This document shows, in pieces, positions 1 to 64,000 of a DNA stretch of 64,000 bases. Source of the DNA: Solirubrobacterales bacterium. GTDB taxonomy: Bacteria; Actinomycetota; Thermoleophilia; Solirubrobacterales; Solirubrobacteraceae. Each line of letters starts with the position of its first letter. Positions within the stretch are counted from its first letter, which is position 1. Made by a program: the position numbers and the translations under genes. The stretch covers positions 375 through 64,374 of the forward strand of contig DAHUYZ010000006.1 of the NCBI GenBank assembly GCA_027306855.1. The letters are read 5' to 3'. Below the pieces are notes generated by a model that made no database searches, had not been told where the DNA came from, and saw nothing but the letters and a program-made list of their open reading frames with translations.

Positions 1-1
1 C

Positions 2-374
2 GGTGTCGTGCTCACCCATGACTGCGAGATCGATAAGGACGACAAGCAGCGTGGGAGCATTCTCGTCGGGTTGGTGCGCCCGCTCAGCTCCGTGAGCGGC
101 GAAGAGAACCAGGAGGGCATCCGCCAGTACACTCGGCACCGAGCCTTCTACCTGCCCGCAAACGCCCCTCCCCCTGCCAGCGAGGGGAACCAAGCGCCTC
201 CCTACCTGGCCGAGGACGGCTATGTCGACCTGCGTCGGATCACGTCGGTCAGGACTCGAGCGCAAGGCGGGAATGAACGAAGATGGCCGACTGATGCTTC
301 AAGAGCATCTGTTCCGCTTCTTTACACGGCGCTTGCTGCCTGAGGGTTGGAGCGAGTGGGAGAGCGAGGAGTAA
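2..374 (+). pseudogene. 5'-truncated by window edge; apparently frameshifted hypothetical protein, possibly PemK/MazF-like fold
   Basis: Frame 2 reads GVVLTHDCEIDK...YVDLRRITSV. A protein-like C-terminus (GLERKAGMNEDGRLMLQEHLFRFFTRRLLPEGWSEWESEE*) lies in frame 3 from ~252 to TAA 372-374, implying a frameshift near 250. The fold assignment is weak. Confidence 0.45.
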
Positions 375-2688: not shown

Positions 2689-4707
2689 ATGCCCGCCACC
2701 AGCGGAGAGGACGTTCGCAGGCTCTCGATCGACACGATCAGAGGCCTCGCCATGGACGCGGTTCAGAAGGCGAACGCCGGCCATCCCGGCACGGCGATGG
2801 CGCTCGCCCCGCTCGCCTACACGCTCTACCGCGACGTCCTGCGCCTCGACCCCGCCGACCCAAGCTGGCCCGGGCGCGACCGCTTCGTGCTGTCCGCCGG
2901 GCACGCCTGCATCCTGCAGTACTCGCTGCTCCATCTCTGCGGCTTCGACCTCTCGCTCGATGACCTGAAGAGCTTCCGCCAGTGGGGCTCGCGCACACCC
3001 GGCCATCCCGAGCGCGGCCACACCCCGGGCATCGAGGTCACGACCGGGCCCCTGGGCCAGGGCATCTCAAACGCCGTCGGCCTGGCGATGGCCGAGCGCT
3101 TTCTGGCCGAGCGCTACAACCGCCCCGGCTGCGAGCTCGTCGACCACCACACATATGTGATCTGCTCGGACGGTGATCTCATGGAGGGCGTATCTCAGGA
3201 GGCCGCCTCGATCGCCGGGCACCTCGGTCTTGGCAAGCTGATCGTCTGCTACGACGACAACCGCATCACGATCGACGGCTCGACTTCGATCTCCTTCGAC
3301 GGCGAGAACCACACCGCCCGCCTCGCCGCCGACGGCTGGCACGTGCAGAGCGTCGCCGACTCCGAGGACACGGCGGCGCTGCTCGCCGCTCTGACGGCCG
3401 CGCGCGAAGAAGCGCAGCGCCCCTCGTTCATCCAGATCCGCTCCCACATCGCCTACCCCGCGCCCAACGCGATCGACACCGCCAAAGCCCACGGCGCCCC
3501 GCTCGGCGAGGAGGAGGTCAGGCTGACCAAGGAAGTGATGGGCTTGCACCCCGAGCGCACCTTCCAGGTCGACGCTCAGGTCTACGAGCACATGAGCCTG
3601 CGCGAGCGCGGTGGCGCTGCCCATGCCGCCTGGCGCGAGCGCGAGCAGGCTTGGCGCAAGCGCCACCCCGAGCTTGCCGGCGAGTGGGACCTGGCGCTGC
3701 AGGGACGCCTGAGCGACGGTTGGGCGCAGGCGCTCCCTCGATTCCAGTCCACCGAGAAGATCGCGACGCGCTCGGCCGGCCAGAAGGCGATGGCCGCGTT
3801 CGCCGAGTTCGCGCCCACCATGGTCGGGGGCGCGGCCGACCTGGTCGAGTCGACCAAGACGACGTTCGAGGGCGCCGGCTACTTCTCGCGCGTGCACTGC
3901 GGGCGCAACGTCGCGTTCGGGATCCGCGAGCACGCGATGGGCGCGATCGTCAACGGGCTCGCCGCCCACGGCGGGATCGTCAAGCCGTACGGATCGACGT
4001 TCCTGATCTTCTCCGACTACATGCGCCCCAGCATCCGCCTCTCCGCGCTGATGGGGCTGCCCGTCGTGTGGGTCTTCACGCACGACTCCGTCGGCCTCGG
4101 CGAGGACGGACCCACGCACCAGCCCGTCGAGCACTTCGCGGCGCTGCGCGCTATCCCCCGGCTGTGGGTGGTCAGGCCATCCGACGCGAACGAGACTTCC
4201 GTCGCCTGGAAGGTCGCGCTGCAGCGGGCTGACGGCCCCGTCGCATTGCTGCTCTCGCGCCAGAACCTGCCCGTGTTCGACCGCTCCGAGCTTGCCTGCG
4301 CCGACGGGCTTGAGCAGGGTGGCTACGTGCTGTGGGAGTCCGGCCCCGACCCCGAGGTCGTACTGATCGCCACGGGCAGCGAGGTCGCCCCGACGCTGCA
4401 GGCGGGGCGCATGCTCTCAGAGCAGGGCACAGCGGCTCGGGTGGTGGCGATGCCGTGCGTGGAGCTGTTCGAAGCGCAACAGGCCGACTACCGCGAGAGC
4501 GTCATCCCCACCGACGTGGGCCCCCGGCTCGCGGTGGAGGCCGGCGTGAGCGCCGGCTGGTGGAAGTGGGTCGGAGATCGCGGCGGCGTGCTCGGGATCG
4601 AGCGTTTCGGAGCCTCCGCACCGGGTAGCACCGTTCTCGAGAAGTTCGGGTTCACGCCCGAGTCGATCGCCGAGCGGGCAAAGGCGCTCGTCGGCCAAAG
4701 GGTCTGA
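2689..4707 (+). CDS. tkt: Transketolase
   Basis: DAVQKANAGHPG, RDRFVLSAGH, TTGPLGQG, SDGDLMEG, FGIREHAM and THDSVGLGEDGPTHQP motifs; start chosen at ATG 2689 after TAGGAT. Confidence 0.97.
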   Translation: MPATSGEDVRRLSIDTIRGLAMDAVQKANAGHPGTAMALAPLAYTLYRDVLRLDPADPSWPGRDRFVLSAGHACILQYSLLHLCGFDLSLDDLKSFRQWGSRTPGHPERGHTPGIEVTTGPLGQGISNAVGLAMAERFLAERYNRPGCELVDHHTYVICSDGDLMEGVSQEAASIAGHLGLGKLIVCYDDNRITIDGSTSISFDGENHTARLAADGWHVQSVADSEDTAALLAALTAAREEAQRPSFIQIRSHIAYPAPNAIDTAKAHGAPLGEEEVRLTKEVMGLHPERTFQVDAQVYEHMSLRERGGAAHAAWREREQAWRKRHPELAGEWDLALQGRLSDGWAQALPRFQSTEKIATRSAGQKAMAAFAEFAPTMVGGAADLVESTKTTFEGAGYFSRVHCGRNVAFGIREHAMGAIVNGLAAHGGIVKPYGSTFLIFSDYMRPSIRLSALMGLPVVWVFTHDSVGLGEDGPTHQPVEHFAALRAIPRLWVVRPSDANETSVAWKVALQRADGPVALLLSRQNLPVFDRSELACADGLEQGGYVLWESGPDPEVVLIATGSEVAPTLQAGRMLSEQGTAARVVAMPCVELFEAQQADYRESVIPTDVGPRLAVEAGVSAGWWKWVGDRGGVLGIERFGASAPGSTVLEKFGFTPESIAERAKALVGQRV

Positions 4708-4723
4708 GCAGGGTCTCAACGAG

Positions 4724-5830
4724 ATGTCATCCAGCCGCTCACCGCTTCACTGCCTATCCGCTCTGGGTCAGAGCGTCTGGATCGACTCCCTCTCGCGCGA
4801 GTGGATCAGAGGCGGCAAGCTGTCTGAGCTGATCGACCAGGACGCCGTCGTCGGCGCCACATCGAACCCGACGATCCTCCAGAAGGCGATGAGCTCCGGC
4901 GACGCCTACGACGAGCAGCTGCGCGAGCTGGCCGGGCGCGATGCGCGCGAGGTCTTCTGGACGCTCGCCGAGCAGGACATAGGGGAGGCGTGCGACGTCT
5001 TCCGGCCCGTCTACGACACGGGTCTGGCGCGTGACGGGTACGTCTCGATCGAGGTCGATCCCAGCCTTGCGTACGACTCGCTGGCGAGCTACCGCGAGGC
5101 GATCAGGCTGCACGAGACGATCGCCCGGCCCAACCTGCTCGTCAAGATTCCCGCCACCAAGCCCGGCCTCGCCGCGATCGAGGACGCGATCGCCGCCGGG
5201 CACTCGATCAACGTCACCTTGATCTTCTCGCTGCAACGCTACGCCGAGGTCGCCGAGTCCTACATCCGTGGCCTCGAGCGCCTCGTCGCCGCGGGAGGGG
5301 ACCCTCACAAGGTCGTTTCCGTCGCGAGCTTCTTCGTCTCGCGCATCGACACCGAGGCGGACCGGCGCCTCGATGAGATCGGTGGGCACGACGAGCTGAA
5401 GGGGCGACTCGCGATCGCCAACGCCAAGCTCGCCTACCAGCACTCCCTCCAGACGTTCGGCGGCGAGCGCTTCGAAGAGCTCGCCGGCAAGGGCGCCACC
5501 CCCCAGCGCGTGCTGTGGGCGTCGACGTCGACCAAGAACCCTTCCTATCCCGACACGCTCTATGTCGATGAGCTGATCGGCCCCGACACGATCAACACGA
5601 TGCCGCTGGAGACGGTGCAGGCCTTCCAGAGCCACGGCACGCCCAAGCCGACGCTCCAGACGGGGATCGCGCAGGCGCACTCCCTCTTCGAGGAGCTGGC
5701 GCGCGCCGGCGTCGACTACGACGACGTCACCGACACGCTCGAGCGCGAGGGCGTCGAGAAGTTCGAAGCCTCTTTCTCGGAGCTCATCGACGAGCTCGCC
5801 GCTAAGCTCGGCTTACTTGCCGGCGTCTGA
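4724..5830 (+). CDS. tal: Transaldolase
   Basis: GQSVWID, GATSNPTI, LLVKIPAT, INVTLIFS and SVASFFVSRID motifs; follows tkt. Confidence 0.96.
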   Translation: MSSSRSPLHCLSALGQSVWIDSLSREWIRGGKLSELIDQDAVVGATSNPTILQKAMSSGDAYDEQLRELAGRDAREVFWTLAEQDIGEACDVFRPVYDTGLARDGYVSIEVDPSLAYDSLASYREAIRLHETIARPNLLVKIPATKPGLAAIEDAIAAGHSINVTLIFSLQRYAEVAESYIRGLERLVAAGGDPHKVVSVASFFVSRIDTEADRRLDEIGGHDELKGRLAIANAKLAYQHSLQTFGGERFEELAGKGATPQRVLWASTSTKNPSYPDTLYVDELIGPDTINTMPLETVQAFQSHGTPKPTLQTGIAQAHSLFEELARAGVDYDDVTDTLEREGVEKFEASFSELIDELAAKLGLLAGV

Positions 5831-6734
5831 ACAGCGACACCTCATCGCAGCGAGCGCACTCCTCTGTGCGGGCCTGGCGGTGCTCGCACTCGTCCTCGGT
5901 GGCGTCATCGGCCAGGTCCACGACAACGCCCTTCAGGCGCCTCCCGCCGCGCCGGCCGCCACGCCGACGCCCGCCCCCGCGGCCGCTACGTCGGTCGCGC
6001 TCGAGGGCCCCTCCCACACGCGACCCCACGAAATCGTCAACCGCCCGTCCCTCACCCCCGGCGTGAGCGCGCCCGCCATATACGAGCCCTCGGCGCCCGT
6101 GGTCCACATCTCCGCCGCCTGGGTCAGCGGCTTCTACCCGATCTACGACACCGCGCAGAAGGTCTTCGGGGTCAACTGGCTGCTGATCGCCTCGATCCAC
6201 ATGCAGGAGTCGGCCTTCTCGACCGACCCCACCACCTACCACGGCCTGAACTTCGCGCACTGCTGCGGCGGGCCGATGCAGTTCAACGTGACCAATGGTC
6301 CGGTCACCACATGGTCGCTCGTCAGCGACTCCTACGTCTATGGGCCGCGGCCCGCCTCCTACGACCACATGACCCTGCGCCACCCCTCCATCTACGACGA
6401 CTTCGACTCGATCATGGCGGCCGCGCACCTGCTGTCCGCCGACGGCGCCGGCTACGCACTCGACGCCGGCGCCTGGAACGCCGCCTACGACTACTACGGC
6501 CACGACCTCACCGGCGTGACGTACGCCGATCAGGTGCTCGCGCGCGCGATCGGCTGGTCACAACATGGCTTCTGCATCAACTGCGGCCTGGAACCGTCGA
6601 TGGTGCAAGCGGTACACGCCGCCTACGGCGCGCCCGTCGCCGCCTCCCTGGAATCGGAAGCGGCGACGGCCTCGCGAGCCAGAGCTAGGCGGCGTCCGCT
6701 TGGGCGATCAGCTCACCTGCGACCCGGTCGGTAG
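5817..6734 (+). CDS. Membrane-anchored lytic transglycosylase (SLT/lysozyme-like) domain protein
   Basis: N-terminal hydrophobic helix, Pro/Ala linker, LLIASIHMQES (catalytic Glu), GPMQF and DSIMAAAHLL motifs; start uncertain (TTG). Confidence 0.7.
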   Translation: MPASEQRHLIAASALLCAGLAVLALVLGGVIGQVHDNALQAPPAAPAATPTPAPAAATSVALEGPSHTRPHEIVNRPSLTPGVSAPAIYEPSAPVVHISAAWVSGFYPIYDTAQKVFGVNWLLIASIHMQESAFSTDPTTYHGLNFAHCCGGPMQFNVTNGPVTTWSLVSDSYVYGPRPASYDHMTLRHPSIYDDFDSIMAAAHLLSADGAGYALDAGAWNAAYDYYGHDLTGVTYADQVLARAIGWSQHGFCINCGLEPSMVQAVHAAYGAPVAASLESEAATASRARARRRPLGRSAHLRPGR

Positions 6735-7830
6735 CGCCCGCGGTCCCGCCGAGCAGCCTGCGCGAGAGCTGAGCGCGCCTGAAGTACAGCGGCGCGTCGT
6801 GCTCCCATGTGGCGCCGATTCCGCCGTGCACGGAGATCATCGCTCGCGACGCGTAATCGAGAGCGCGACCAGCCACGGAGCGCGCGGCGCTGGCGGCGAG
6901 CGGGAACTCCGCGGGCGCCCCGTTGCGTGACCAGCCCGCGTAGTAGAGCAGCGACTTGCCGTTCTCCAGTTGGCGCAGCACCTCGGTCAGCGAGTGCTTG
7001 ACCGCCTGGTATGAGCCGATCGCACGGCCGAACGTGTGGCGCTCCTTCGCGTATGCGACCGACACCTCGAGCGCCGTCTCCACGCTCCCGAGCGACTCCG
7101 CCGCGATCAGCGCCTGTGCGAGGTGCCATGCGCCGGCCAACGCCTCCAGCGACGCGTCGAGCACCGTCGCGGGCGCGTTCGTCAGCGTCACGTGCGCGAG
7201 CGAGCGCGTAGCGTCGTAGCGGCGCACCGGCTCGATCCGTACACCCTCCGCGTCGGCCATGACCACCACGCCCGCGGGCTCGCCGTCGATGAGCGCCACG
7301 CCGACAAGGGCATTCGCTCCGACGGCGTCTGGCACGAACGCATAGGCGCCGCTCAGCTTCACCTCGCCGTTCGCGTCAGGCGTCGAGCCTTCGGCAAGCC
7401 CCGGCCGCTGCGCCCCGTGCTCGGGGTCCGCGGTCCAGCGCTGCTCGACGTCGCTGGGCGGCTGCGAGGGCAGATACGCCGCTCGCCGCTCGCCGCTCGC
7501 GAGCCCTGGCAGGTACTCGGCCACCCTCGGCGCGTCGGCGAGGATCGCCGTGGCGGGCAGGTGTCCGAGCAGCGGCACGGATGCGAGCACGCGCCCGCAC
7601 TCGCCGAGCACGAGCATCGCGTCGAACGCGTCGAGTCCCGCGCCGCCGTGCTCCTCGTCGATCAACAGTCCCGGCCAGCCTGCCTCGCAGGCGGTAGGCC
7701 AAAGGTCGGGCAGGGCATTCTCGTCGCCGTCGAGCGCCTCGCGCGCCGCCTCGAGCGTCTTCACGCGCGAGAGCGTTCCACGGGCAGCCTCGCGCAGGAA
7801 CTCCTGCTCGTCTGAGAGTGCGAGATTCAT
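6685..7830 (-). CDS. Acyl-CoA dehydrogenase family protein (partner subunit type)
   Basis: MNLALSDEQEF start, ERHTFGRAIGSYQAVKH and HGGIGATWEH motifs; ATGA overlap with the upstream acyl-CoA dehydrogenase. Confidence 0.92.
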   Translation of the reverse strand: MNLALSDEQEFLREAARGTLSRVKTLEAAREALDGDENALPDLWPTACEAGWPGLLIDEEHGGAGLDAFDAMLVLGECGRVLASVPLLGHLPATAILADAPRVAEYLPGLASGERRAAYLPSQPPSDVEQRWTADPEHGAQRPGLAEGSTPDANGEVKLSGAYAFVPDAVGANALVGVALIDGEPAGVVVMADAEGVRIEPVRRYDATRSLAHVTLTNAPATVLDASLEALAGAWHLAQALIAAESLGSVETALEVSVAYAKERHTFGRAIGSYQAVKHSLTEVLRQLENGKSLLYYAGWSRNGAPAEFPLAASAARSVAGRALDYASRAMISVHGGIGATWEHDAPLYFRRAQLSRRLLGGTAGATDRVAGELIAQADAA

Positions 7831-55073: not shown

Positions 55074-56537
55074 TCAGTAGTAGAGCGTTCCGACGGTTTG
55101 GACGACGAGCGCGTAGGTGTTGCGGTTGAACGTCCCGTACAGTTTTGCGATCCCGTGTGCCTGCCTGAAGCGACCGCTGCCGCCCGTGACGGTGAGCGTC
55201 CCGGCGAAGCTTTCGATCGCGCTCGCGCCTTTCGGGATCGCGCTTCCGTGTCCGCGGATCGCGCCGCCGCGCACGTAGAACGTAAAGCTTCCGCTGAAGC
55301 GGCCTTCGACGCGCATGTGGACCTTCATCGAGCCGGGCAGCGTCCCGCCGGCTCTCCCCTCCTCGAACAGCAGCGAGCCGGACGCTGAGATGTAGTGCAG
55401 GTGCGCCGTATCGGTCGCTTTCAGGGTGTGCGCGGCGTGTGCCCGCGGCGAGACGGTCGCCCCCCCGGCGCCGATTGCGCCGGCCGCCAGGACCACGGCG
55501 GCGATGCCCGCCAGACGCTCTGCCAGTCGCCATGTGCGCATCACCACAAGCGTAGGGCCTATCGGCCCGCCTAGCTCCGGTTGCAGGCGTGCGAGAACCG
55601 CTTGTGCGTGGGGCTCGCGGGCGGCCGGCGCGCTCGAGTAGTAGGCCACGACGCCCTCGAGCGTCATGCGGTGGTGCGGGCCGTGCCGCAGCCTCCCGGC
55701 GGCCTCGATCGCGCCATGGGCGGTCGCCGCCAAGCGCAGGCCCATCTCCTCGCCGCTCTCGTACAACGCCTGATAGTCCAGCGTCCCTATCGCAGAATCC
55801 TCGGCGCGGTCGATGACGCTGTCGAGCATCGTGAGCGCCCCGATGCGCAGGTACAGCTCGTCGAGCGCGTCTGCGTCAGCTTCGCTCGTGCACGGGTCGG
55901 CCGCCGCCGCGATCAGTGCGTGCAGGCAGAGCACGGAAGCCTGCGCGCCGGCCAGCCACTCGCGCCAGCCGAGCCCGGTCGAGTGCGCCTGGGCGCGTGC
56001 CCATCGCTCGAGCTCTCCCAACCCGTGCCCGTCCCGGATCGCATGTCCGCGCGTCTGGGCCTGCCCGCAGCGCTCGGCGGCTCGCAGCGCTGGCTCCCTC
56101 ACAGCCGCCGCTGCCGGCAGGCGCGCCACCCGCTCGCGAGCGGTCACGATCAGCTCGCGCAGGTAGTCGTCGTCGTGCCCGTCTGCATCGCCCGCCGCCG
56201 GCTTGAAGGGCAGACCGAGGACGTCGTGCGCAGGCTCATCGCGGTGCATCGCGTGCTCGCCGAGCGCGTCGAGGTAGTCGTAGGCGACCTGCAGCGCCAC
56301 GATCGCCTCGGTGACTTCATCGCGGCGGGCGCGTGGGGCGATCGTTGTGAGCGTGGCCGCCAGTCGCGGGTTGAACCGCTCATGGGACAGCTTGTCGAGC
56401 GCGAGCGACCGTCGCCTGGGGTCCTCGATCTTCGTGGCCCGCTCCTTCCAGCGAGCGAGCTGCGCCCGCACGCGCGGCGCCACCGTCGTCCAGTAGCGCA
56501 AGTTCGCGCACACGAGTGCTCCTATGACGCTAGTCAT
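55074..56537 (-). CDS. DUF2600 (YtpB tetraprenyl-beta-curcumene synthase-like) protein fused to a TM/signal segment and an exported beta domain
   Basis: AYDYLD and TMLDSVIDRAED acidic motifs; then a hydrophobic helix, AHA-A cleavage-like site and Gly/Thr-rich domain. Confidence 0.75.
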   Translation of the reverse strand: MTSVIGALVCANLRYWTTVAPRVRAQLARWKERATKIEDPRRRSLALDKLSHERFNPRLAATLTTIAPRARRDEVTEAIVALQVAYDYLDALGEHAMHRDEPAHDVLGLPFKPAAGDADGHDDDYLRELIVTARERVARLPAAAAVREPALRAAERCGQAQTRGHAIRDGHGLGELERWARAQAHSTGLGWREWLAGAQASVLCLHALIAAAADPCTSEADADALDELYLRIGALTMLDSVIDRAEDSAIGTLDYQALYESGEEMGLRLAATAHGAIEAAGRLRHGPHHRMTLEGVVAYYSSAPAAREPHAQAVLARLQPELGGPIGPTLVVMRTWRLAERLAGIAAVVLAAGAIGAGGATVSPRAHAAHTLKATDTAHLHYISASGSLLFEEGRAGGTLPGSMKVHMRVEGRFSGSFTFYVRGGAIRGHGSAIPKGASAIESFAGTLTVTGGSGRFRQAHGIAKLYGTFNRNTYALVVQTVGTLYY

Positions 56538-59268
56538 GCAGCGCAAGCCTCGGTGAGACGTGTGAGGCGCGCCACGCCGGCAGCGCGACGATCGAAAGCA
56601 CGATTGCGATCGCTATCGCAAGGACCTCCGCCGGGCGCAGACCTGCGGCGAGTCGTTCGACGGGGAAGCCCGTCACGTGACTGAGGTAGCCGTCGATCAC
56701 GAGCTGCCCGTATGCGCCGGCGAGCGTTCCGGTGAGGCAGCCGGCGCTCAGCATCAGCGCGGACTCGACGAGCAGGATCAACCGTATGCGCCGCGGACGC
56801 ACACCGGCCAGGCGCAGGCCGGCGAGCGTTGAGCGGCGCTGCCAGATCGCGGAGGCAAGCGCGGTGGCCAGCGCGAGGATCGCGCCGCCGAGCAGCAGCG
56901 TCGAGATCTCGCCGAGGTGGCCGAGCCCTTCGCCGGCGAGCGCGTCGATGCGCGCTTCGCGTTCGCGGGCCGTCACGACTTCGAGCCCGTTGCCGCCACC
57001 GCCCGCCCGCCCGCCGCCACCGACTGCCAGTGCGCCGCCAGGGACTCCCCGTCCGTTGTCCCCGATCGCCCGTTCGATCGCCCGCTTGGCGCTTGTTTCG
57101 CTTACGCCCGGTGAAAGCGTCACGCCGAATGCGTTTGGAGCGTGCGTACCCCACAGGCGCGAGAAGTCCGCGCTCGACATGAACAGAGCGCCGGGGCTCC
57201 ATGCGAGGTTCGTGGTCGTGGCCGCGATCCTCATCGTGACGGGGCCGCTCGGTGTCGGCAGTGTCAGCGTTCCGCCGACGCCCGTATCGTGTTCAGTCGC
57301 TATCTGCCGGGAGACCGCGATCCACCCGCCTTCGCCGAGGTGACGCAGCGCCACGGGCGCGCTGCCCTGCGCGATCTGGCTTTCGAGCACGCGTCTTTGT
57401 GCCCTGGGCGGACGTGCGATGACCCATACGCGGCGGCTGCCGAACGCCAGGAAACCACCCTGAAATGCGGTTACGCGCGAGACGCCCTTCACAGACGCGA
57501 TACGCGCCTGAACGCCATCCGCGCCGGCGCCCGCGCTCGTGTTCGCCCGGCCGTCGATAGCGCCGCTTGCGGTTCTGTTCGCAGGGCTGTCCCCGCCCAG
57601 CGGCACGACCGCCTGGTTGTCGCCGGGATTGCCGACCCAGATTTGTGCGTCGGAGGAGTAGCTGCGCGCGAACCGTTCGAGCCCGTGCAGCAGGTCCGCG
57701 CGGCCTCCCCCGAGCGCGACTGAGCCGAACAGGGCAACAGCGCCTGTCGCTGCCAGGGCAAGCGCCCGCAGGGTGGTCGAGCGCAGCGCGGACAGGGCGA
57801 CGGGCAGGATCGTGAGGTGCGCTCGTCGCCGCGTGAGCTGGGTGGCGGCTGCCAGTACGAGCGCGAAGCAGAGTGGGACGGCGAGCACGGTTGCCAGTGC
57901 GAGCAGCCCGCAGGCCAGCAGCGCATACTGGGGAGCGGCCGCATACAGCACGCTGGCGCACGCGAGCAGCGCCGCGGCGCTGGCGCCGAGCGTGGTTGCG
58001 GAGCGAGTGGACAGCACGCCGCCCGTCGCTGCGCCGTCGTTGTGGTAGACCGCATCGAGCATGCGGCCCGGCCGCAGGTCGAGCAGTGGCGTGGCCGAGG
58101 CAAGGCAGGTGGCGAGCACGCCGCCCAGCAGCGCGAGCGCGAGCGGCTGGGTCGTCACGATCGTGCGCGTCCCGAGCGTGAACGCCTCAGCGAGGTAGCC
58201 GGTCGCCGGCTGGAACGCGCCGCCTGAGAGCAGGTAGCCGCCCGCGACGCCGGCTAAGGAGGCTGCGACGCCGAGGACGAGCGCCTGGAACGCGAACAGT
58301 TGAACGATTGCGCGCCGTTTCGCGCCGTTGAGACGCAAATCGGCGATCGTGCGGCGGCGCTCTGGCACGGTCAAGAGCAGCGCGGCAAACGCGAACAGCA
58401 GTCCAAGTAGTGCGCTCACTGCCGCGAAGAAACCGCTTGCCTGGTCGGAGGGGCGCAGCGCTTGGCGCAGCAGATCGACATCCTGATTTGCCGCGACCAC
58501 GTCGACGCGGCCTTTCGCGAGGCGTGTCAGCTCCCTGCTCACGGTCTGTTGCTCACCGGGTTGCGTCTGTACGAGCACGCGGCTGATGCGCCCTGGCAGG
58601 CCGGCGAGCCGCTGGAGCTGACCGAGCGGCATGACGGCGACGTGTGCTTGGGAGAGCGCGCCGAACGTTTCGGCTCCCAGCACGGCCGAGACCGCCAGCG
58701 GGGTGACGCGACCGTCCAGCGTCAGCGAGACCGTCGTGCCGGTGGCGGCGTGGGCGCTCGCCGGCGTGGGCGCGACCGTAAGACCGAGAGCGCTTGCGGT
58801 GGAGCGCGACAGGCCGATCCCGCCCGCCGAGAGCGTGGAGGTGGGCAGCGTGTGCGCGAGGCCGTCGAGCACGACGAGGCTCGTGTCGGCGCCGGCCAGG
58901 TCGACCGTGACGTGCCGGCCGTCCGCCGCTGTGATCGTGGCGGTCCGCTCGAGCAGTGGCGCGGCCTGCTTGACGCCCGCCAGGCGTTCCACCGCTGTGA
59001 GCGTGCTTTCGGAGAGGCCGTCGCCGCCGCGTGCGCGCAGCTGAAGGCTCGCGGGACCGGTGACCGCGTGTACGACTTCGCCCGCTGAGCCCGCGATGCT
59101 CGAGGCGACGATGATCGTGGCGAACACGATGGCCACGCCGATCGCCACCCCTAGGCCCGCGAGCAGCTCCTGGACTGCGTGTACCCGCAGCCGTCGGCGG
59201 TACAGGTAGAGCAGCGCGCCGGTCCGCATCAGCGGGCGCGCACGCGCGACGGTGTCAGTCGCGGCCAT
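56530..59268 (-). CDS. ABC transporter permease, FtsX/MacB family
   Basis: Two periplasmic loops plus FtsX-type TM blocks (ERRRTIADLRLNG, QRRSTLAGLRLAG). Confidence 0.88.
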   Translation of the reverse strand: MAATDTVARARPLMRTGALLYLYRRRLRVHAVQELLAGLGVAIGVAIVFATIIVASSIAGSAGEVVHAVTGPASLQLRARGGDGLSESTLTAVERLAGVKQAAPLLERTATITAADGRHVTVDLAGADTSLVVLDGLAHTLPTSTLSAGGIGLSRSTASALGLTVAPTPASAHAATGTTVSLTLDGRVTPLAVSAVLGAETFGALSQAHVAVMPLGQLQRLAGLPGRISRVLVQTQPGEQQTVSRELTRLAKGRVDVVAANQDVDLLRQALRPSDQASGFFAAVSALLGLLFAFAALLLTVPERRRTIADLRLNGAKRRAIVQLFAFQALVLGVAASLAGVAGGYLLSGGAFQPATGYLAEAFTLGTRTIVTTQPLALALLGGVLATCLASATPLLDLRPGRMLDAVYHNDGAATGGVLSTRSATTLGASAAALLACASVLYAAAPQYALLACGLLALATVLAVPLCFALVLAAATQLTRRRAHLTILPVALSALRSTTLRALALAATGAVALFGSVALGGGRADLLHGLERFARSYSSDAQIWVGNPGDNQAVVPLGGDSPANRTASGAIDGRANTSAGAGADGVQARIASVKGVSRVTAFQGGFLAFGSRRVWVIARPPRAQRRVLESQIAQGSAPVALRHLGEGGWIAVSRQIATEHDTGVGGTLTLPTPSGPVTMRIAATTTNLAWSPGALFMSSADFSRLWGTHAPNAFGVTLSPGVSETSAKRAIERAIGDNGRGVPGGALAVGGGGRAGGGGNGLEVVTAREREARIDALAGEGLGHLGEISTLLLGGAILALATALASAIWQRRSTLAGLRLAGVRPRRIRLILLVESALMLSAGCLTGTLAGAYGQLVIDGYLSHVTGFPVERLAAGLRPAEVLAIAIAIVLSIVALPAWRASHVSPRLALHD

Positions 59269-60079
59269 CTCGTCCTCCGGCGCGCGCCGAAGACCTGATT
59301 ACTCCGCCGGCGCCTTGCCCGTCCCGACCCGCGCTTTGACTGTCGCGTCCGGCATCATGGTCGTCGCGATCGGTGTCGTGCCCTTCGCCGCTCTGGGTGT
59401 GGCGCCTGGGGTGCCCATCGACGAGGCGACCGTCGCGCAGCGTGCATCGGCGGTCTGCGATGGCGGCGGCCTCGAGGTCGTGGGTGACGAGCAGCACCGC
59501 CGCCGCGCGATCGCGGGCATAGTCGTGCAGCAGCCTTACGATCTCGTGGCTGCGTGCGCTGTCGAGCGTGCCGGTGGGCTCATCGGCGAGCACGAGCGCC
59601 GGCTCTCCCGCCAGCGCCCGTGCGATCGCGACGCGTTGGCGCTCCCCGGCCGACAGCTGCTCGGGTGTGCGCCGCAGCGAGCCGTCGAGGCCGACGCGGG
59701 AAAGCCATGGCCGCACACGCTCTTGTGCCGCGCCGGCGCCCATTCCGCCGAGGACGAGCTTTAGGGCGGCATTCTCGAGCGCCGGCACGCGCGCCATCAA
59801 TTGTGGGCTCTGATACACAAAGCCGACGTCGCGGTGCAGATAGTCGGCCGCCTCGCCGGTCGAGAGGCGTCCGAGGTCGCGGCCCTGAAAGCGGATCGAG
59901 CCCGAGTCTGGAGCGAGCAACGCGGCGACGAGCAGCAGGAGCGTCGTCTTGCCTGAGCCGCTCGGCCCGTGAAGCGCGAGCCTTTCGCCGGCCGCCAGGC
60001 GCAGGCTGACGCCGTCGACGGCGCGCACCTCCTCGCCGGCGCCGCGATAGTGCTTGACGACGTGCTCGAGCTCGAGCAT
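59255..60079 (-). CDS. ABC transporter ATP-binding protein (LolD/MacB type)
   Basis: GPSGSGKT, LSAGERQ, ADEP and VTHD motifs. Confidence 0.93.
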   Translation of the reverse strand: MLELEHVVKHYRGAGEEVRAVDGVSLRLAAGERLALHGPSGSGKTTLLLLVAALLAPDSGSIRFQGRDLGRLSTGEAADYLHRDVGFVYQSPQLMARVPALENAALKLVLGGMGAGAAQERVRPWLSRVGLDGSLRRTPEQLSAGERQRVAIARALAGEPALVLADEPTGTLDSARSHEIVRLLHDYARDRAAAVLLVTHDLEAAAIADRRCTLRDGRLVDGHPRRHTQSGEGHDTDRDDHDAGRDSQSAGRDGQGAGGVIRSSARAGGRDGRD

Positions 60080-60129
60080 GAGCGCAAGCTATAGAGCGCC
60101 GTGCCGCCAGGCGTGCCGGCGGGCTCTGT

Positions 60130-60840
60130 TCATCGGCCGGCGGCTTGGCAACGTAAGGGCACGACTTCGGCGAGCTCGGGAGTGCGCTCGCCACGCAGCA
60201 CGCCATGATCGAGCGATAGGGCGCGGTCGGCACCTGAGAGGCCGGTCGCGTCGTCGGTCGCCGTGAGGATGGCGATGCCTTCGTCGGCAAGGGAGCGCAA
60301 CAGCAAGAGGATCTCATCGCGCTGAGAGAGGTCGACGTCGCGGATCGGGTCGTCGACGAGCAGCAGCGATGGCTCTCCTACGAGCGCGCGCGCGAGCGCG
60401 ACGCGCATCGCTTCTGAGCCGTCCAGCTCATGTGGCGCAAACGATGCGCATTCGCTCGCCTGCACCCGCGCGAGCGCTGCGAGGGCTCCTGAGCGCGCTT
60501 TGCGTTCGGAGGCGCCGCGCGCGAGCTGGGTGACGAGGAGCTCGTCGAGGACGCCGCGCGATTCCCCACCGTAGAGCCCGCGCTTGCAGTAGCCGATGCC
60601 GGCGCCGAGCGCTTGGGAGCCGGCCCGCAGCTCGCGTCCCTGAAAACGCACGATGCCCGCGTCGGGCGCCTCGATGCCGGCTGCGATGCGCAGCAGTGTC
60701 GAGCGTCCGCAGCGTCGGCGACCCCAGATCGCGACCAGCTCGCCCTCCTCTACATCGAGGCAGGCGTCGGCGAGCAGTACGTGCTCGCGCGTCCCGTTAC
60801 GCCGCCGCCGGCCGATGTGCCACAGTTCGAGCAGGCTCAT
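60130..60840 (-). CDS. Degenerate ABC ATP-binding-like protein
   Basis: GRRRCGRST (Arg replaces Lys), LDGSE signature, VDDP (no Glu), no H-loop His. Confidence 0.8.
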   Translation of the reverse strand: MSLLELWHIGRRRRNGTREHVLLADACLDVEEGELVAIWGRRRCGRSTLLRIAAGIEAPDAGIVRFQGRELRAGSQALGAGIGYCKRGLYGGESRGVLDELLVTQLARGASERKARSGALAALARVQASECASFAPHELDGSEAMRVALARALVGEPSLLLVDDPIRDVDLSQRDEILLLLRSLADEGIAILTATDDATGLSGADRALSLDHGVLRGERTPELAEVVPLRCQAAGR

Positions 60841-61457
60841 CGCGCGATCGAAGCCAATGTGTTCGCGCTCAGTTGAAGGCGTGCGTAGGCCACCCAGGCG
60901 AGCCGCGCCTCCAGCGCTAGGCGCTCGTCCTCGAGGCATAGGCGCTCGGAGAGCAGCGCGCCCGTGTCGGCGCCATCCCGGCTGTGGCCGCGCGAAGGCG
61001 TGGCCCTGCTTGCCTCGGAGAGGCACGCCTGCTCATAGCGGTCGAGCACGGCGAGCGCGCGATCGGGAGGGAGCATTGCGAGCTGGGAGGCGAACAGTCG
61101 CGAGCGCGTGCGGTCGTGCTCGACATGCGCTACGAGCCACGCTTGGAAGCTCTCGAGGCCCTGCTTGGTGACCCGGTAGTGCAGCTTTGGCTGGCGCGTC
61201 AAGGGGCTGTCGGACGGCAGGACGCGCTGGATGAGCCCCTTCTTTTCGAGCGCGTCGAGCGCGACGTAGATTTGCGAGGGGCTCGACAGTTCGAGCGACT
61301 CGCCGTATGTCCGTTCGAAGCGCTGGACGAGCTCGTAGCCGTAGGAGGCTCGCTGGATCACGAGGCCCAGCAGTGCCCAGTTGATTGGAGAGCGCATCTC
61401 GACGGTCGCCCGCTCGTGCGCTGCGAGCCCAGACTGCGATGCGACCCTCGCTCCCAT
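60837..61457 (-). CDS. PadR-family transcriptional regulator
   Basis: WALLGLV...YGYEL...SQIYVALDALEKKGLI...YRVTKQG; start may be ~61397. Confidence 0.9.
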   Translation of the reverse strand: MGARVASQSGLAAHERATVEMRSPINWALLGLVIQRASYGYELVQRFERTYGESLELSSPSQIYVALDALEKKGLIQRVLPSDSPLTRQPKLHYRVTKQGLESFQAWLVAHVEHDRTRSRLFASQLAMLPPDRALAVLDRYEQACLSEASRATPSRGHSRDGADTGALLSERLCLEDERLALEARLAWVAYARLQLSANTLASIAR

Positions 61458-61500
61458 CTGGGCCAAGACTAGCGCGACCGGCCAGCGCGGGCTACTCACA

Positions 61501-61518
61501 ATCTAGAAACTTCTAGAT
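61501..61518. promoter_or_regulatory. Inverted repeat ATCTAGAA-AC-TTCTAGAT, probable PadR operator
   Basis: Perfect 8-bp arms overlapping a TTCAGA-N18-TAGATT promoter-like sequence on the minus strand upstream of padR. Confidence 0.65.
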
Positions 61519-61706: not shown

Positions 61707-61812
61707 CTACCGCGAACCCGTCGGGGCGGTACGCCCAACCTGTTTGCAGACGTCGCGCGTCAGGCCGGGACCGATCTCGTTGTGTCGCGGCAGCGCGGCC
61801 ACCTCGTCTTTG
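61707..61812 (-). pseudogene. C-terminal remnant of a HicA-family toxin
   Basis: KDEVAALPRHNEIGPGLTRDVCKQVG matches the HicA xPRHxEI...CKQxG C-terminus; the N-terminus is replaced by repeat copy 1. Confidence 0.65.
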
Positions 61813-62060
61813 GCGGCGCGCCTCCGGCTCGCCCGGCCGATCTCGCTAACCAATCTTCCCCCCTCGTCCCGAACCTCCGGTTTCGGCACAGGAGTGGGAG
61901 TGGCAGTCAAAAGGGCAACGAGAGGTTGCCGTGGAAACTTTCATGGTCGCCTTCGGGCGGCCGGGATTGAAGTAAGTAACGAGTAACAAGTAACAGTGAA
62001 AAGTAAATCTCACTCAACCTCTGTCCTGGACCATGCCTTCTAGTCCGATAGCTGAGCGCC
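61809..62060 (+). repeat. Structured cassette-boundary element, copy 1
   Basis: Shares ordered blocks with copies 2 and 3: CGCTA-CCAATC, hairpin ending ACAGGAG, CAGTCAAAA, GGCAAC-N5-GTTGCC, CTTTCATGGTCGCC..ATTGAAGTAAGTAAC, CCATG and CTGAGCG. Confidence 0.92.
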
Positions 62061-62101
62061 TCAACCCGCGTCTACGCGCGATAGCTCTCAACGGCGGTCG
62101 C

Positions 62102-62515
62102 CTACCCCTCGCCGTCAGGCTCGGCGTCCGCCGGCTGGACGATTGTTTTGGCCCAGGCGATAGCCTCGGTGGCCCATTTGAGCGCCTGGTCGCGGTCGAG
62201 GCCGATCGGGACTTCAGATCCGTATCGCTCGTCGCGAGCGAATGGGTTCAGGTCTTCGACGTCGTCAAGCGCGGAAGGCAACTCGATCCCAGATTCCGCC
62301 GAGAAGCTCCTGAGGCGTTCGAGGTCGTGAGTGAAGGGGAATTCGGTTTCCTTTACCGCAAGCACGGCCTTGATGGCCTTCTCGACGGCTTGATGGCAGT
62401 GGAAACCGACGATTGGATCGGCGATCCCTTCGACTCGCAACATCGATTTAGCGGCAAGCTCATCTTCTTGGGCGGCACCGAGCAGCCGACGTGCGAGGTC
62501 GCCGTTCGTGGCCAT
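62102..62515 (-). CDS. HEPN domain protein (MNT-HEPN toxin partner)
   Basis: FHCHQAVEKAIKA, THDL and RY motifs; TAATG coupling to MNT. Confidence 0.9.
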   Translation of the reverse strand: MATNGDLARRLLGAAQEDELAAKSMLRVEGIADPIVGFHCHQAVEKAIKAVLAVKETEFPFTHDLERLRSFSAESGIELPSALDDVEDLNPFARDERYGSEVPIGLDRDQALKWATEAIAWAKTIVQPADAEPDGEG

Positions 62516-62829
62516 TATGCCGCGATCTCCCGGCCCTCACGCAGGGCGGAGTTGATTACGGTGCCGTACACGTCGCGCCACTCGCGCACGCTATCCTCGC
62601 TTCTGACGATCACATCGGCCCACACGCCGAGCCCTTTGAGGGTTCTGTGCAGCCGGACCGACTCCTTGGCCACGTCCTTCACCGACGGCTCGATCACGAG
62701 GAAGTCCAGATCTGAGTGCTTGCCGGCCTCGCCGCGGGCGTGGGAGCCGAACAGGATCACGCGGCTGCCCGACGGCGCGGCGGCGAGTATGCGCTGTCCC
62801 GCCTCCTGTATCACGGCGTCGTCGAACAT
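62515..62829 (-). CDS. Minimal nucleotidyltransferase (MNT)
   Basis: ILFGSHARG and SDLDFLV motifs; ATG 7 nt after TACAAT. Confidence 0.92.
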   Translation of the reverse strand: MFDDAVIQEAGQRILAAAPSGSRVILFGSHARGEAGKHSDLDFLVIEPSVKDVAKESVRLHRTLKGLGVWADVIVRSEDSVREWRDVYGTVINSALREGREIAA

Positions 62830-62903
62830 GCCGGGGATTGTACCGCGCCGTGGGGCCAAAGCCACGGGAGCGCTCTCCAAGGAGGCCCTTCCGGACGCGT
62901 CCC

Positions 62904-63110
62904 CGCTACCCAATCTTCCCCGCTCGTCTCGCACCTCCGGTGTCGAGACAGGAGCGGCAGTCAAAAAGGCAACGACAGGTTGCCGTGCAAACTTTCATGG
63001 TCGCCTTCGGGCGGCCAGGATTGAAGTAAGTAACAAGTAATGAGTAAAGCAAGTCTCGATCTACTCACTATCAATCTGAACCATGTCTTCCACCCCAACA
63101 CCTGAGCGCC
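62904..63110 (+). repeat. Structured cassette-boundary element, copy 2 (left edge may extend to ~62870)
   Basis: See copy 1. Confidence 0.92.
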
Positions 63111-63216
63111 TCTTGTGAAATTGGACGAACGAACTTTTCTGAGCAGCGCCGACTCACCGCGCTCGCTTCTTGCGGCAGGACGCGACGCGGCGCCCGCCTG
63201 TGAGGCTCATCGGGCC

Positions 63217-63420
63217 CTACCGGGGCCGGTACATGTCGCGCGTGACGCGGACGTTGGCTCGCAGACCCGTGGTGGCATACTTCAGGGCCGCCCGTTTTTC
63301 CTCGGGGGTCTTCGCCTTCGCGGGCACGAAGAGCTCGGCCAGCTCCTCGGGGCTGAGCCGCTCGATCTTCCCGTTGCTGGTCCGGGCTTTGCTGGTCTGC
63401 ACTTTGGCCATGCTCATCAT
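63217..63420 (-). CDS. Small hypothetical protein, orphan antitoxin-like (67 aa)
   Basis: AGGAG RBS 7 nt before ATG; helical with LSPEEL and KTPEEK motifs; no partner toxin follows. Confidence 0.6.
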   Translation of the reverse strand: MMSMAKVQTSKARTSNGKIERLSPEELAELFVPAKAKTPEEKRAALKYATTGLRANVRVTRDMYRPR

Positions 63421-63501
63421 GGTAGCTCTCCTGTCGGTCGACACGAAGCGACCGGATGCGATCGCCGTCCATGCACGCTACGCCCCGCAGGGGATGGGGA
63501 A

Positions 63502-63768
63502 TTTGCGGCGCGCCTCGGCCTCGGCCGATCTCCGAGGCGCCGAAGGCGCCCCGCTACCAATCATTTCACCTCGTCCCGCACCCGCAGGGCTGTCGGGACA
63601 GGAGCGCCAGTCAAAAGGGCAACCACAGGTTGCCGTGGAAACTTTCATGGTCGCCTGCGGGCGGGCGGAATTGAAGTAAGTAACAAGTGACGAGTAAAGT
63701 GAAAATCAAGTCTCTATCTACTCACTATCAATCTGAACCATGCAACCCTTTATCTCAATAGCTGAGCG
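63502..63768 (+). repeat. Structured cassette-boundary element, copy 3
   Basis: See copy 1; also shares TTTG(G)CGGCGCGCCTC..CGGCCGATCTC upstream with copy 1. Confidence 0.92.
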
Positions 63769-63817
63769 TTTCGTTGATGGAGGTGCGCTCGGGGCCATCG
63801 CGTTCCCCGGCGTTTCC

Positions 63818-64000
63818 TCAGCAGCTCGTGGCCGCGTTCAGGGCCCGGCAGACTTCGCTCATCTTTGCGGGGCCCAGCGAGGTGATGCGTTCGATCAGGA
63901 AGATCTTGTCCGCCGCATCGATCTGATCGGCGTTCAACGCACAGGCGCGCGGCATGCCGTCCTCGGGTCCGAGCTCGACCTCGGTGGGGAGACCGCGGAT
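63818..64000 (-). CDS. mazF: PemK/MazF-family toxin, C-terminal part (truncated by window edge; not in the ORF track)
   Basis: Translates IRGLPTEVELGPEDGMPRACALNADQI...ERITSLGPAKMSEVCRALNAATSC*, typical of actinobacterial MazF. Confidence 0.85.
   Translation of the reverse strand: MRGLPTEVELGPEDGMPRACALNADQIDAADKIFLIERITSLGPAKMSEVCRALNAATSC

Follow-up and report, generated by a model that had tools for sequence, protein, structure and literature searches.

A modular non-coding repeat at the junctions of toxin-antitoxin cassettes in a Solirubrobacterales genome

Toxin-antitoxin (TA) genes occupy the right-hand end of a 64,000-nucleotide (nt) stretch of a Solirubrobacterales genome, hereafter the window, which corresponds to positions 375-64374 of contig C226 in an assembly of 2.23 Mb and 259 contigs that is 92% complete. 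The TA cassettes all lie on one strand and alternate with a conserved, modular, non-coding repeat, each cassette being followed by one copy of the repeat or by a short variant of it. The reading that we prefer, tentatively and at a little under an even chance, is that the repeat is the module at the junctions of a TA island, with copies that gene conversion keeps alike; it would insulate neighboring cassettes from each other and provide a homology handle for their rearrangement. We describe the repeat, its distribution and the history of the arrays, and then weigh this reading against alternatives in which the repeat is a dedicated recombination site, a mobile element or a functional RNA.

Copies of the repeat and their distribution

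The three copies within the window (R1-R3; Table 1) are homologous, lie on the same strand and are non-coding, as found by repeat search, MAFFT alignment and blastn. They correspond to elements recognized in an earlier reading of the same DNA from its letters (the original prediction), which had placed three homologous non-coding elements of the same orientation at 61809-62060, 62904-63110 and 63502-63768. The bounds have since been revised to those in Table 1, drawn on the + strand from CGCTA... to ...CTGAGCGYYTC. Pairwise blastn alignments of R1-R3 show 76-84% identity over 195-225 nt (E 1e-38 to 1e-54), the column identity is 79%, and a core (61887-61995, 62941-63049 and 63591-63699) is 83-90% identical. 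Searches of the whole assembly with blastn and nhmmer bring the family to six full copies of 210-240 nt (class A), five short copies (class B) and one stub. By blastn, nhmmer and pattern searches of the genome, all copies are confined to arrays on four contigs (C226, C211, C199 and C255), where they run in the same direction. Extension of the contig to the right, which the original prediction had proposed as a check, yields further repeat-cassette units: C226 continues for 2.9 kb beyond the window and bears one more full copy and two short variants. The scatter of copies that the prediction would have expected of an ordinary miniature inverted-repeat transposable element (MITE) was looked for genome-wide, and copies were met only in arrays.

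The repeat was not found in ~650 related genomes nor in two public contig collections. The consensus gave no blastn match in 60 relatives, an exact 21-mer of the core is absent from the genome_contigs and metagenome_contigs collections, and 250 genomes of the family lack a 30-nt pattern of its M1 end (described below) even with up to three mismatches allowed. Over 400 genomes of the class, a covariance model built on the 134-nt core returned a single match (E 0.005), which is attributable to chance. No covariance model of Rfam 15 matches the region at E up to 1, and the sole Rfam match on the three array contigs is a group II intron, with none for the repeat. An exact-protein look-up with the HEPN toxin of the window led to only one contig, of 1,009 nt (Logan, run SRR10333326) and identical to the window array, and look-ups with the MazF and PIN toxins gave no match. 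The case is restricted to one fragmented metagenome-assembled genome, in which the upstream end of every array is a contig end; a recombinase gene adjacent to an array would therefore have gone unseen.

Anatomy of the repeat

Read along the cassette (-) strand, a class-A copy consists of M1, M2, hairpin P3, a linker, hairpins P2 and P1, and GGAAGATTGGTTAGCGGGG; a further palindrome, P0, follows outside the bounds and leads into the promoter region of the next cassette. M1 is ~35 nt long, CGCTCAG...CATGGTTCAG, and begins 10-60 nt past the upstream stop codon. M2 is an AT-rich tract (~45 nt) of TTAC heptads, the number of which differs between copies; its G+C content is 33-34%, against 68% for the window. 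The P3 hairpin, GGCCGCC-CGAA-GGCGACC, is connected to P2 by a linker that is nearly invariant, with one variable base: ATGAAAGTTT(C/G)CAC, which on the other strand reads GTG(G/C)AAACTTTCAT. P2 is a GGCAAC-loop-GTTGCC hairpin followed by CTTTTGA, P1 carries GGAGG in its loop, and the GC palindrome P0 differs in sequence by cassette type and is missing from R1. Class-B copies share with class A only the first ~100 nt of the cassette strand, that is M1 and M2, after which a CAAGCTT(T)GTG palindrome replaces the three class-A hairpins.

The P2 hairpin and its T-run score as terminator-like on the - strand in all three window copies, and terminator-like sites number six where 1.9 are expected. The GC stem of P2 and the CTTTTGA after it would thus form a signal that ends transcription of the upstream cassette, and if the module acts in this way, each TA pair would therefore run from its own promoter. 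A TACAAT or TACCAT box, followed by seven nt and ATG, precedes the MNT, MazE-like and ParE-partner antitoxin genes, the box of MNT being TACAAT at 62837-62842. A TACAAT-type box seven bases before ATG is the usual geometry of leaderless actinobacterial promoters. The MNT box suggests a leaderless promoter, and we infer that the cassettes use promoters of their own. R2 folds far more stably than shuffled controls do (z -4.8 and -4.4). Two compensatory changes of pairs are present in P1, where G-U intermediates occur on the - strand, and P3 has a G-U pair on the + strand.

Some variants of the repeat edges are seen on C211. Its P0, at 2075-2096, is a perfect 22-bp palindrome, GGACGCGCTGGCCAGCGCGTCC, followed by TTTGAGG and situated 52 nt upstream of an antitoxin start; it could serve as a terminator or as the antitoxin operator. 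At 2667-2736 of the same contig, TAGTCCAGCACCCGATCG comes after the terminal stub of M1 and is similar to M1-left in inverted form (16/22 identical). An 86%-identical copy of the 36 nt that follow the stub lies 2.4 kb upstream (263-298), and the pair brackets three cassettes as direct repeats.

Coding readings of the repeat were considered and rejected. An open reading frame (ORF) of ~30 codons on the - strand, MKVSTAT(C/S)..., has, by eye, substitutions that are nearly all non-synonymous and lie mostly at codon positions 1-2, and has lost its stop in two copies; a protein search with a spurious ORF that spans the repeat gave no match. The + strand peptide MSFSPTPERF is not the stub of a lost gene, in that the genome holds no intact gene with such a start. 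An inspection of M1 by eye for a tRNA-like or dif-like origin yielded nothing convincing.

Evolution of the arrays

The arrays have undergone duplication of segments, deletions and, all along the repeat, recurrent exchange of sequence. The C226 segment that runs from R3 through VapB, a deleted PIN gene and R2 to the next promoter is collinear with a C211 segment from R5 through VapB, PIN and R6 to its promoter (77-85% identity), with homology that continues beyond the repeat and stops ~7 nt short of the next ATG. Beyond this point the cassettes, MNT-HEPN on C226 and antitoxin-ParE on C211, are unrelated, and similarity resumes ~16 nt before the next M1. R4 together with the 5' end of the MazE-like gene matches R6 together with the 5' end of the antitoxin gene (82% over 398 nt). 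C199 begins with the same deleted-PIN cassette as C226, 96% identical and with the identical deletion junction. C255 carries a decayed paralogue of the array-padR-...-comM region: it is 77-88% identical to the C199 locus, and the 7.2 kb between the padR 5' end and comM are gone. Truncated genes are found at or next to repeat edges, namely a hicA remnant, a truncated PIN gene (C211 452-660) and the internally deleted PIN gene.

The repeats themselves are mosaic. The six full copies are 80-91% identical and their neighboring genes are unrelated; in the four-gamete test 233 of 406 informative-site pairs are incompatible, and over the 235 nt at least 14 recombination events (Rm, the minimum number) are required. 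Adjacent copies are not each other's closest relatives, R6 being 91% identical to both R1 and R4. The original prediction had named tandem duplication and decay, visible as a fixed arrangement in relatives, as the finding that would speak against it. Duplication and decay are indeed seen within the genome, in the collinear blocks, the decay of C255, the gene remnants and the mosaicism; they are not seen in relatives.

On the junction-module reading, the right end of the window would constitute the downstream portion of a TA island in the chromosome, with one lineage-specific modular non-coding element at every junction. The module is long, well conserved and always in direct orientation, and would offer portable homology for RecA-type recombination. 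Recombination on the modules would let cassettes be duplicated, lost and swapped, both inside an array and from one array to another, and gene conversion would keep the copies alike while the intervening cassettes are unrelated. Like termination and promoter use, this role of recombination in moving cassettes is one that we infer from sequence.

A complete-looking group II intron lies at 908-2773 of C255, ~145 nt beyond the class-B repeat and on the strand opposite to the cassettes. Its D1-D4 match 908-1030, D5/D6 match 2698-2773, and an ORF of 416 amino acids encodes a reverse transcriptase (RT)/maturase (RVT_1 and GIIM). A VapBC-like pair follows the intron. The RT belongs to a separate element.

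Cassettes and neighboring operons

The original prediction had the gene-sized inserts of the window all on the strand opposite to the repeats (-), as a hicA remnant, an MNT-HEPN pair, an antitoxin-like ORF and mazF, which Pfam and BLASTP searches bear out (Table 1). It also held the antitoxin to be an orphan; comparison with C211 reveals instead that an internally deleted PIN partner directly follows it. The intact PIN gene of C211 encodes 197 amino acids (PF01850). A search with the VapB-like antitoxin found 100 homologues, and in the contigs of the three that were checked, a PIN gene is next wherever the contig reaches far enough. The hicA remnant is identical at 17 of 34 residues to residues 30-63 of an intact HicA (PF07927) farther along the array (BLASTP, E 1e-11), and the VapB-type piece fused to it is a deletion scar. 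A MazE-like antitoxin gene precedes mazF beyond the window.

Further cassettes of the arrays are MazE-like/MazF, an unknown pair of 152 and 64 amino acids, HicB/HicA, VapB-like with intact PIN, the truncated PIN, and an unclassified antitoxin with ParE, in which the N-terminal part of the antitoxin is homologous to the MazE-like protein. Another consists of a DUF2283 gene preceded by a short ORF with no Pfam match, which by eye we take to be the remnant of a DUF4258-type toxin gene. The arrays hold clustered, unrelated type II TA genes (HEPN, MNT, MazF, HicA, HicB-like, PIN, ParE and DUF2283), as in a TA island.

Table 1. Positions of the repeats, cassettes and neighboring features (window coordinates unless a contig or locus is named)
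Feature	Position	Strand	Remarks
padR-ABC-ABC-FtsX permease operons	56530-61499; C211 (L002) 2850-6780; L003 829 onward		TA array precedes each
Perfect 19-bp palindrome AATCTAGAAACTTCTAGAT	61500-61518		Upstream of padR; marks the downstream limit of the array
hicA remnant	61707-61811	-	Last 34 codons only; no start codon, no promoter
VapB-type upstream piece fused to mid-hicA	61812-61843	-	85% identical to 63502-63527 upstream of the VapB-like gene
R1 (class A)	61844-62062		P1 61863-61894, P2 61914-61930, P3 61945-61962; AT-rich heptad tract from 61966; M1 end 62058
HEPN toxin gene	62102-62515	-	PF05168, E 2e-15
MNT (nucleotidyltransferase) antitoxin gene	62515-62829	-	PF01909, E 8e-10
R2 (class A)	62904-63112		P1 62923-62954, P2 62968-62984 (T-run after it, - strand), P3 62999-63016; linker inside 62985-63001; AT-rich tract 63020-63060; M1 63076-63108; P0 62893-62902 just outside
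PIN (VapC) toxin gene, large internal deletion	63154-63210	-	Only the first and last few codons left; aligned to the intact PIN gene of C211
VapB-like antitoxin gene	63217-63420	-	No Pfam family
R3 (class A)	63552-63772		P1 63570-63604, P2 63618-63634, P3 63649-63666; P0 63536-63550 just outside
mazF, 3' part	63818-64000	-	Whole gene 102 amino acids; PF02452, E 1.6e-12 (full gene from contig)
Class-A copies	R1-R4 on C226; R5 and R6 on C211		
Class-B copies	C226 66006-66110; C226 66734 to contig end; C255 ~655-764; C199 96-207; C211 1-73		
35-nt M1 stub	C211 2667-2706		Beside padR
comM 3' fragment fused to antisense padR 5' fragment	C255 (L004) 1-311		C199 counterparts 7.2 kb apart

At least three arrays have their downstream end 140-200 nt before a padR-ABC-ABC-FtsX operon; these operons are paralogous, and the cassettes are co-directional with them. 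The three PadR proteins are 33-52% identical. Relatives hold up to 14 padR paralogues without such arrays, and their orthologous padR loci show no array and no similar AT-rich tract. The 19-bp palindrome between array and operon in the window is likely, by its sequence, the PadR operator. Similar TAGAA..TTCTA palindromes lie upstream of padR relatives in L030 (~1290-1310 and 2160-2180) and in L048. L030, which comes from a genome of the same genus (G032), also bears upstream of its padR orthologue (1296-2990) a tandem-duplicated gene of ~190-230 amino acids that is Uma2-like by eye. This local duplication, which includes a segment with the padR-operator-like palindrome, occupies the same position but is of another kind.

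An analogous arrangement is seen in two metagenome contigs from ENA, L039 and L040, which encode a VapB 79% identical to the VapB-like antitoxin of the window. L039 (2465-11738) and L040 bear six copies of a CT-rich repeat of ~130 nt with a CCCATCC...GGGATGG hairpin, unrelated to the window repeat. One of 16 comparisons between the window repeat and that of L039 reached z 5.4 (30/39 identical), and we treat homology as unproven. The cassettes between these repeats are co-directional and include AbiEi/AbiEii, VapBC and DUF6932-HTH; one VapBC pair and its repeat form a tandem duplication. The two samples have nearly the same order of genes. Within 7 kb there is no gene for a site-specific recombinase, and the upstream edge carries an insertion sequence (IS) transposase gene that is different in each sample. 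The same TA pair is found on its own in a third lineage, where it borders a variable region with a four-gene cluster that looks Wadjet-like from its Pfam matches.

Alternative explanations

Several observations weigh against the junction-module reading. Homologous recombination accounts for reshuffling, but not for the initial placement of unrelated TA operons precisely between modules, and a simple terminator needs neither 235 conserved bases nor a stretch of 28 nt that is nearly invariant (one variable base). The recurrence of breaks at CATGGTT is left unexplained: the alignment of C199 with C226 falls from 96% identity to unalignable exactly at CATGGTT, from where C199 continues with a class-B repeat, and the C211 stub beside padR ends at CATGGTTC, which is the picture expected of a fixed crossover point. 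R1 does not fold better than its shuffled controls do, and the G-U pairs, which favor the + strand for P3 and the - strand for P1, give no consistent strand preference for the structure. A PHI-like recombination test is marginal (p 0.07), and part of the site incompatibility could reflect recurrent mutation. The placement of the operons, the breaks at CATGGTT and the 235 kept bases are the reasons why a dedicated capture system, a mobile element and an RNA function keep weight.

The original prediction had suggested a recombination or capture site, or a small mobile non-coding RNA unit, with a cognate recombinase, RT or nuclease beyond position 64000. The layout and the restriction of the repeats to arrays are integron-like, as suggested, but neither a capture site nor a mobile RNA unit gained positive support, and a linked enzyme did not materialize: the next 2.9 kb hold only more cassettes, with no recombinase, RT, Cas or TnpB-type gene. 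In a capture reading, the module, or the ~35-nt M1 with its CATGGTT(C)AG core, would be the recombination site of an undescribed integron-like system whose recombinase lies beyond the array ends or elsewhere in the genome. We consider this unlikely, with a chance that is still appreciable. The layout resembles that of sedentary chromosomal integrons, with species-specific, homogeneous, one-directional, array-only repeats and many TA cassettes with promoters of their own. The same deleted-PIN cassette is followed by a class-A repeat on C226 and by a class-B repeat on C199, with the break exactly at CATGGTT, and the C211 stub ends at CATGGTTC; the left and right variants of M1 are combined in a shuffled fashion, the class-A copy is closed by the related motif GGAAGATTGGTTAG, and MNT-HEPN and antitoxin-ParE swap between nearly identical end points. 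The contig ends noted above would also have hidden an adjacent recombinase. However, no integron integrase is among the five tyrosine recombinase matches in the assembled 92% of the genome, the best TIGR02249 score, from a Xer-type protein, being 137.9 against a cut-off of 265, and two large serine recombinases on other contigs are unlinked to the arrays. No RYYYAAC/GTTRRRY box pair brackets any repeat on either strand, as the original prediction had noted, and the repeat ends pair over only 4 bp (CGCT/AGCG); on these features an identity as an integron or as a cluster of attC sites lacking integrase (CALIN) is rejected. Moreover, mosaic breakpoints spread over the whole repeat rather than falling at one point, homology between arrays reaches beyond the repeat into promoters and antitoxin 5' ends, the absence of M1 from the family genomes searched means that no empty site is known, and the L039/L040 analogue keeps nearly the same cassette order with no site-specific recombinase nearby. 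The more specific proposal, that M1, with its CATGGTT(C)AG core, serves as the crossover site in a non-attC, non-IntI capture and exchange system that stocks TA (defense-type) cassettes upstream of exporter operons, is somewhat less likely again; by analogy with L039/L040, such a system may belong to a broader, as yet undescribed class of TA arrays punctuated by repeats.

The class-A element could instead be a non-autonomous mobile element, similar to a MITE or a palindrome-associated transposable element (PATE) and possibly moved by a hairpin-recognizing enzyme, that inserted repeatedly into TA-island junctions, class B being older or related elements that share an end. This appears improbable. 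Its ends are sharp and reproducible (CGCTCAG ... TAGCGGGG), the level of identity among copies stands amid unrelated neighbor genes, an imperfect direct repeat of ~14 nt, GGAAGAYNTGGTT, brackets the class-A-specific part, and a family found in one species only would suit a recent burst. The hairpins also adjoin TTAC and TCAA motifs, in which we see a presumed resemblance to IS200/IS605 ends. A scattered MITE is rejected, however, on the confinement of all copies to arrays, where they sit in collinear blocks with cassettes, on terminal inverted repeats of no more than 4 nt, on the lack of a target-site duplication and on the absence of a Y1 HUH transposase gene from the genome. The sole IS110-family transposase fragment (C180 16-273) is cut by the contig start, and the ~260-nt non-coding region upstream of it is unrelated to the repeat. 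A primary role as RNA is quite improbable too: the module would be a structured 3' untranslated region or small RNA (P3-linker-P2-U-run), or would specify a + strand antisense RNA running from the AT-rich tract into the 3' end of the upstream toxin gene, and would coordinate all cassettes. The nearly invariant single-stranded linker between two hairpins with variable loops and the compensatory changes in P1 point this way, the terminator-like P2 could delimit an RNA of ~75 nt, and TTGAAG-N18-TAAAGT on the + strand is, by eye, a weak promoter-like match in some copies. Against it, Rfam is silent on the repeat, no promoter passes a scan of either strand, the varying heptad number means that promoter spacing is not kept, and six close copies provide too little covariation, with no strand preference. 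It is very improbable, and close to refuted, that P3 and AGGATTGAAG form a solitary repeat like those of clustered regularly interspaced short palindromic repeats (CRISPR), giving a cr-like regulatory or decoy RNA. The stem-loop is followed by (A)GGATTGAAR, a combination that we take to resemble the 3' part of type I-C, I-G and III CRISPR repeats, but the genome holds neither Cas1 nor a CRISPR array, and no array with repeats ending in GGATTGAAR occurs in 151 genomes of the family. A CRISPR-like flag at C203 7139-7300 is a short-period tandem repeat in a coding region (SQGPSQG...).

Comparison with known systems

TA islands, reportedly described by Makarova, Wolf and Koonin in 2009, are alike in that many unrelated type II TA pairs, decayed members among them, are clustered on the chromosome. 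We know of no described island that is punctuated by one conserved structured module at every junction. By general knowledge of them, the repetitive extragenic palindromic (REP) sequences and bacterial interspersed mosaic elements (BIMEs) of enterobacteria and the BOX elements of Streptococcus pneumoniae share with the repeat an extragenic position, hairpin formation, modularity and a variable number of internal units, and they are often terminator-like and substrates for recombination. They differ in being spread genome-wide in tens to hundreds of copies, whereas the window repeat is confined to TA arrays in a genome with no RAYT-type (Y1) gene. The pdif modules of Acinetobacter plasmids are likewise small, often contain TA pairs and are delimited by repeated recombination sites. 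These sites are 28 bp long, alternate in orientation and are used by the housekeeping XerC/XerD recombinases; the array repeats are long and direct and nothing dif-like is recognized in them, although XerC/D-type genes do exist in the genome. As a compact part, the module is, with or without a dedicated enzyme that moves the cassettes, a candidate insulator or terminator for high-GC bacteria.

To our knowledge, integrons are the only well-understood builders of one-directional arrays of short cassettes, and are considered all but absent from Actinobacteria. Sedentary chromosomal integrons and CALINs, such as the Vibrio superintegrons with their VCR-type attC sites, are alike in having species-specific, one-directional, array-only repeats that alternate with short unrelated cassettes, many of them TA pairs that carry promoters of their own (Cury et al., 2016, PMC4889954; Richard et al., 2024, PMC13108822). 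The present arrays, with co-oriented cassettes each followed by one repeat or short variant, differ from them in a repeat that is conserved in sequence and has neither the RYYYAAC/GTTRRRY boxes nor a long imperfect palindrome, in the lack of a detected IntI gene, and in homology between arrays that exceeds the repeat, with mosaic breakpoints spread along it. attC sites measure ~57-141 bp, and the 210-240 nt measured here are well above that range, in keeping with the original prediction that the repeats are much longer. The array reproduces the integron layout, but its junction element is entirely different and much longer, and no integrase is in sight. Should ordinary homologous recombination on the shared module suffice, this would be a simple, probably widespread and hardly described route to TA and defense islands; a dedicated enzyme would instead make it a new system for site-specific gene capture.

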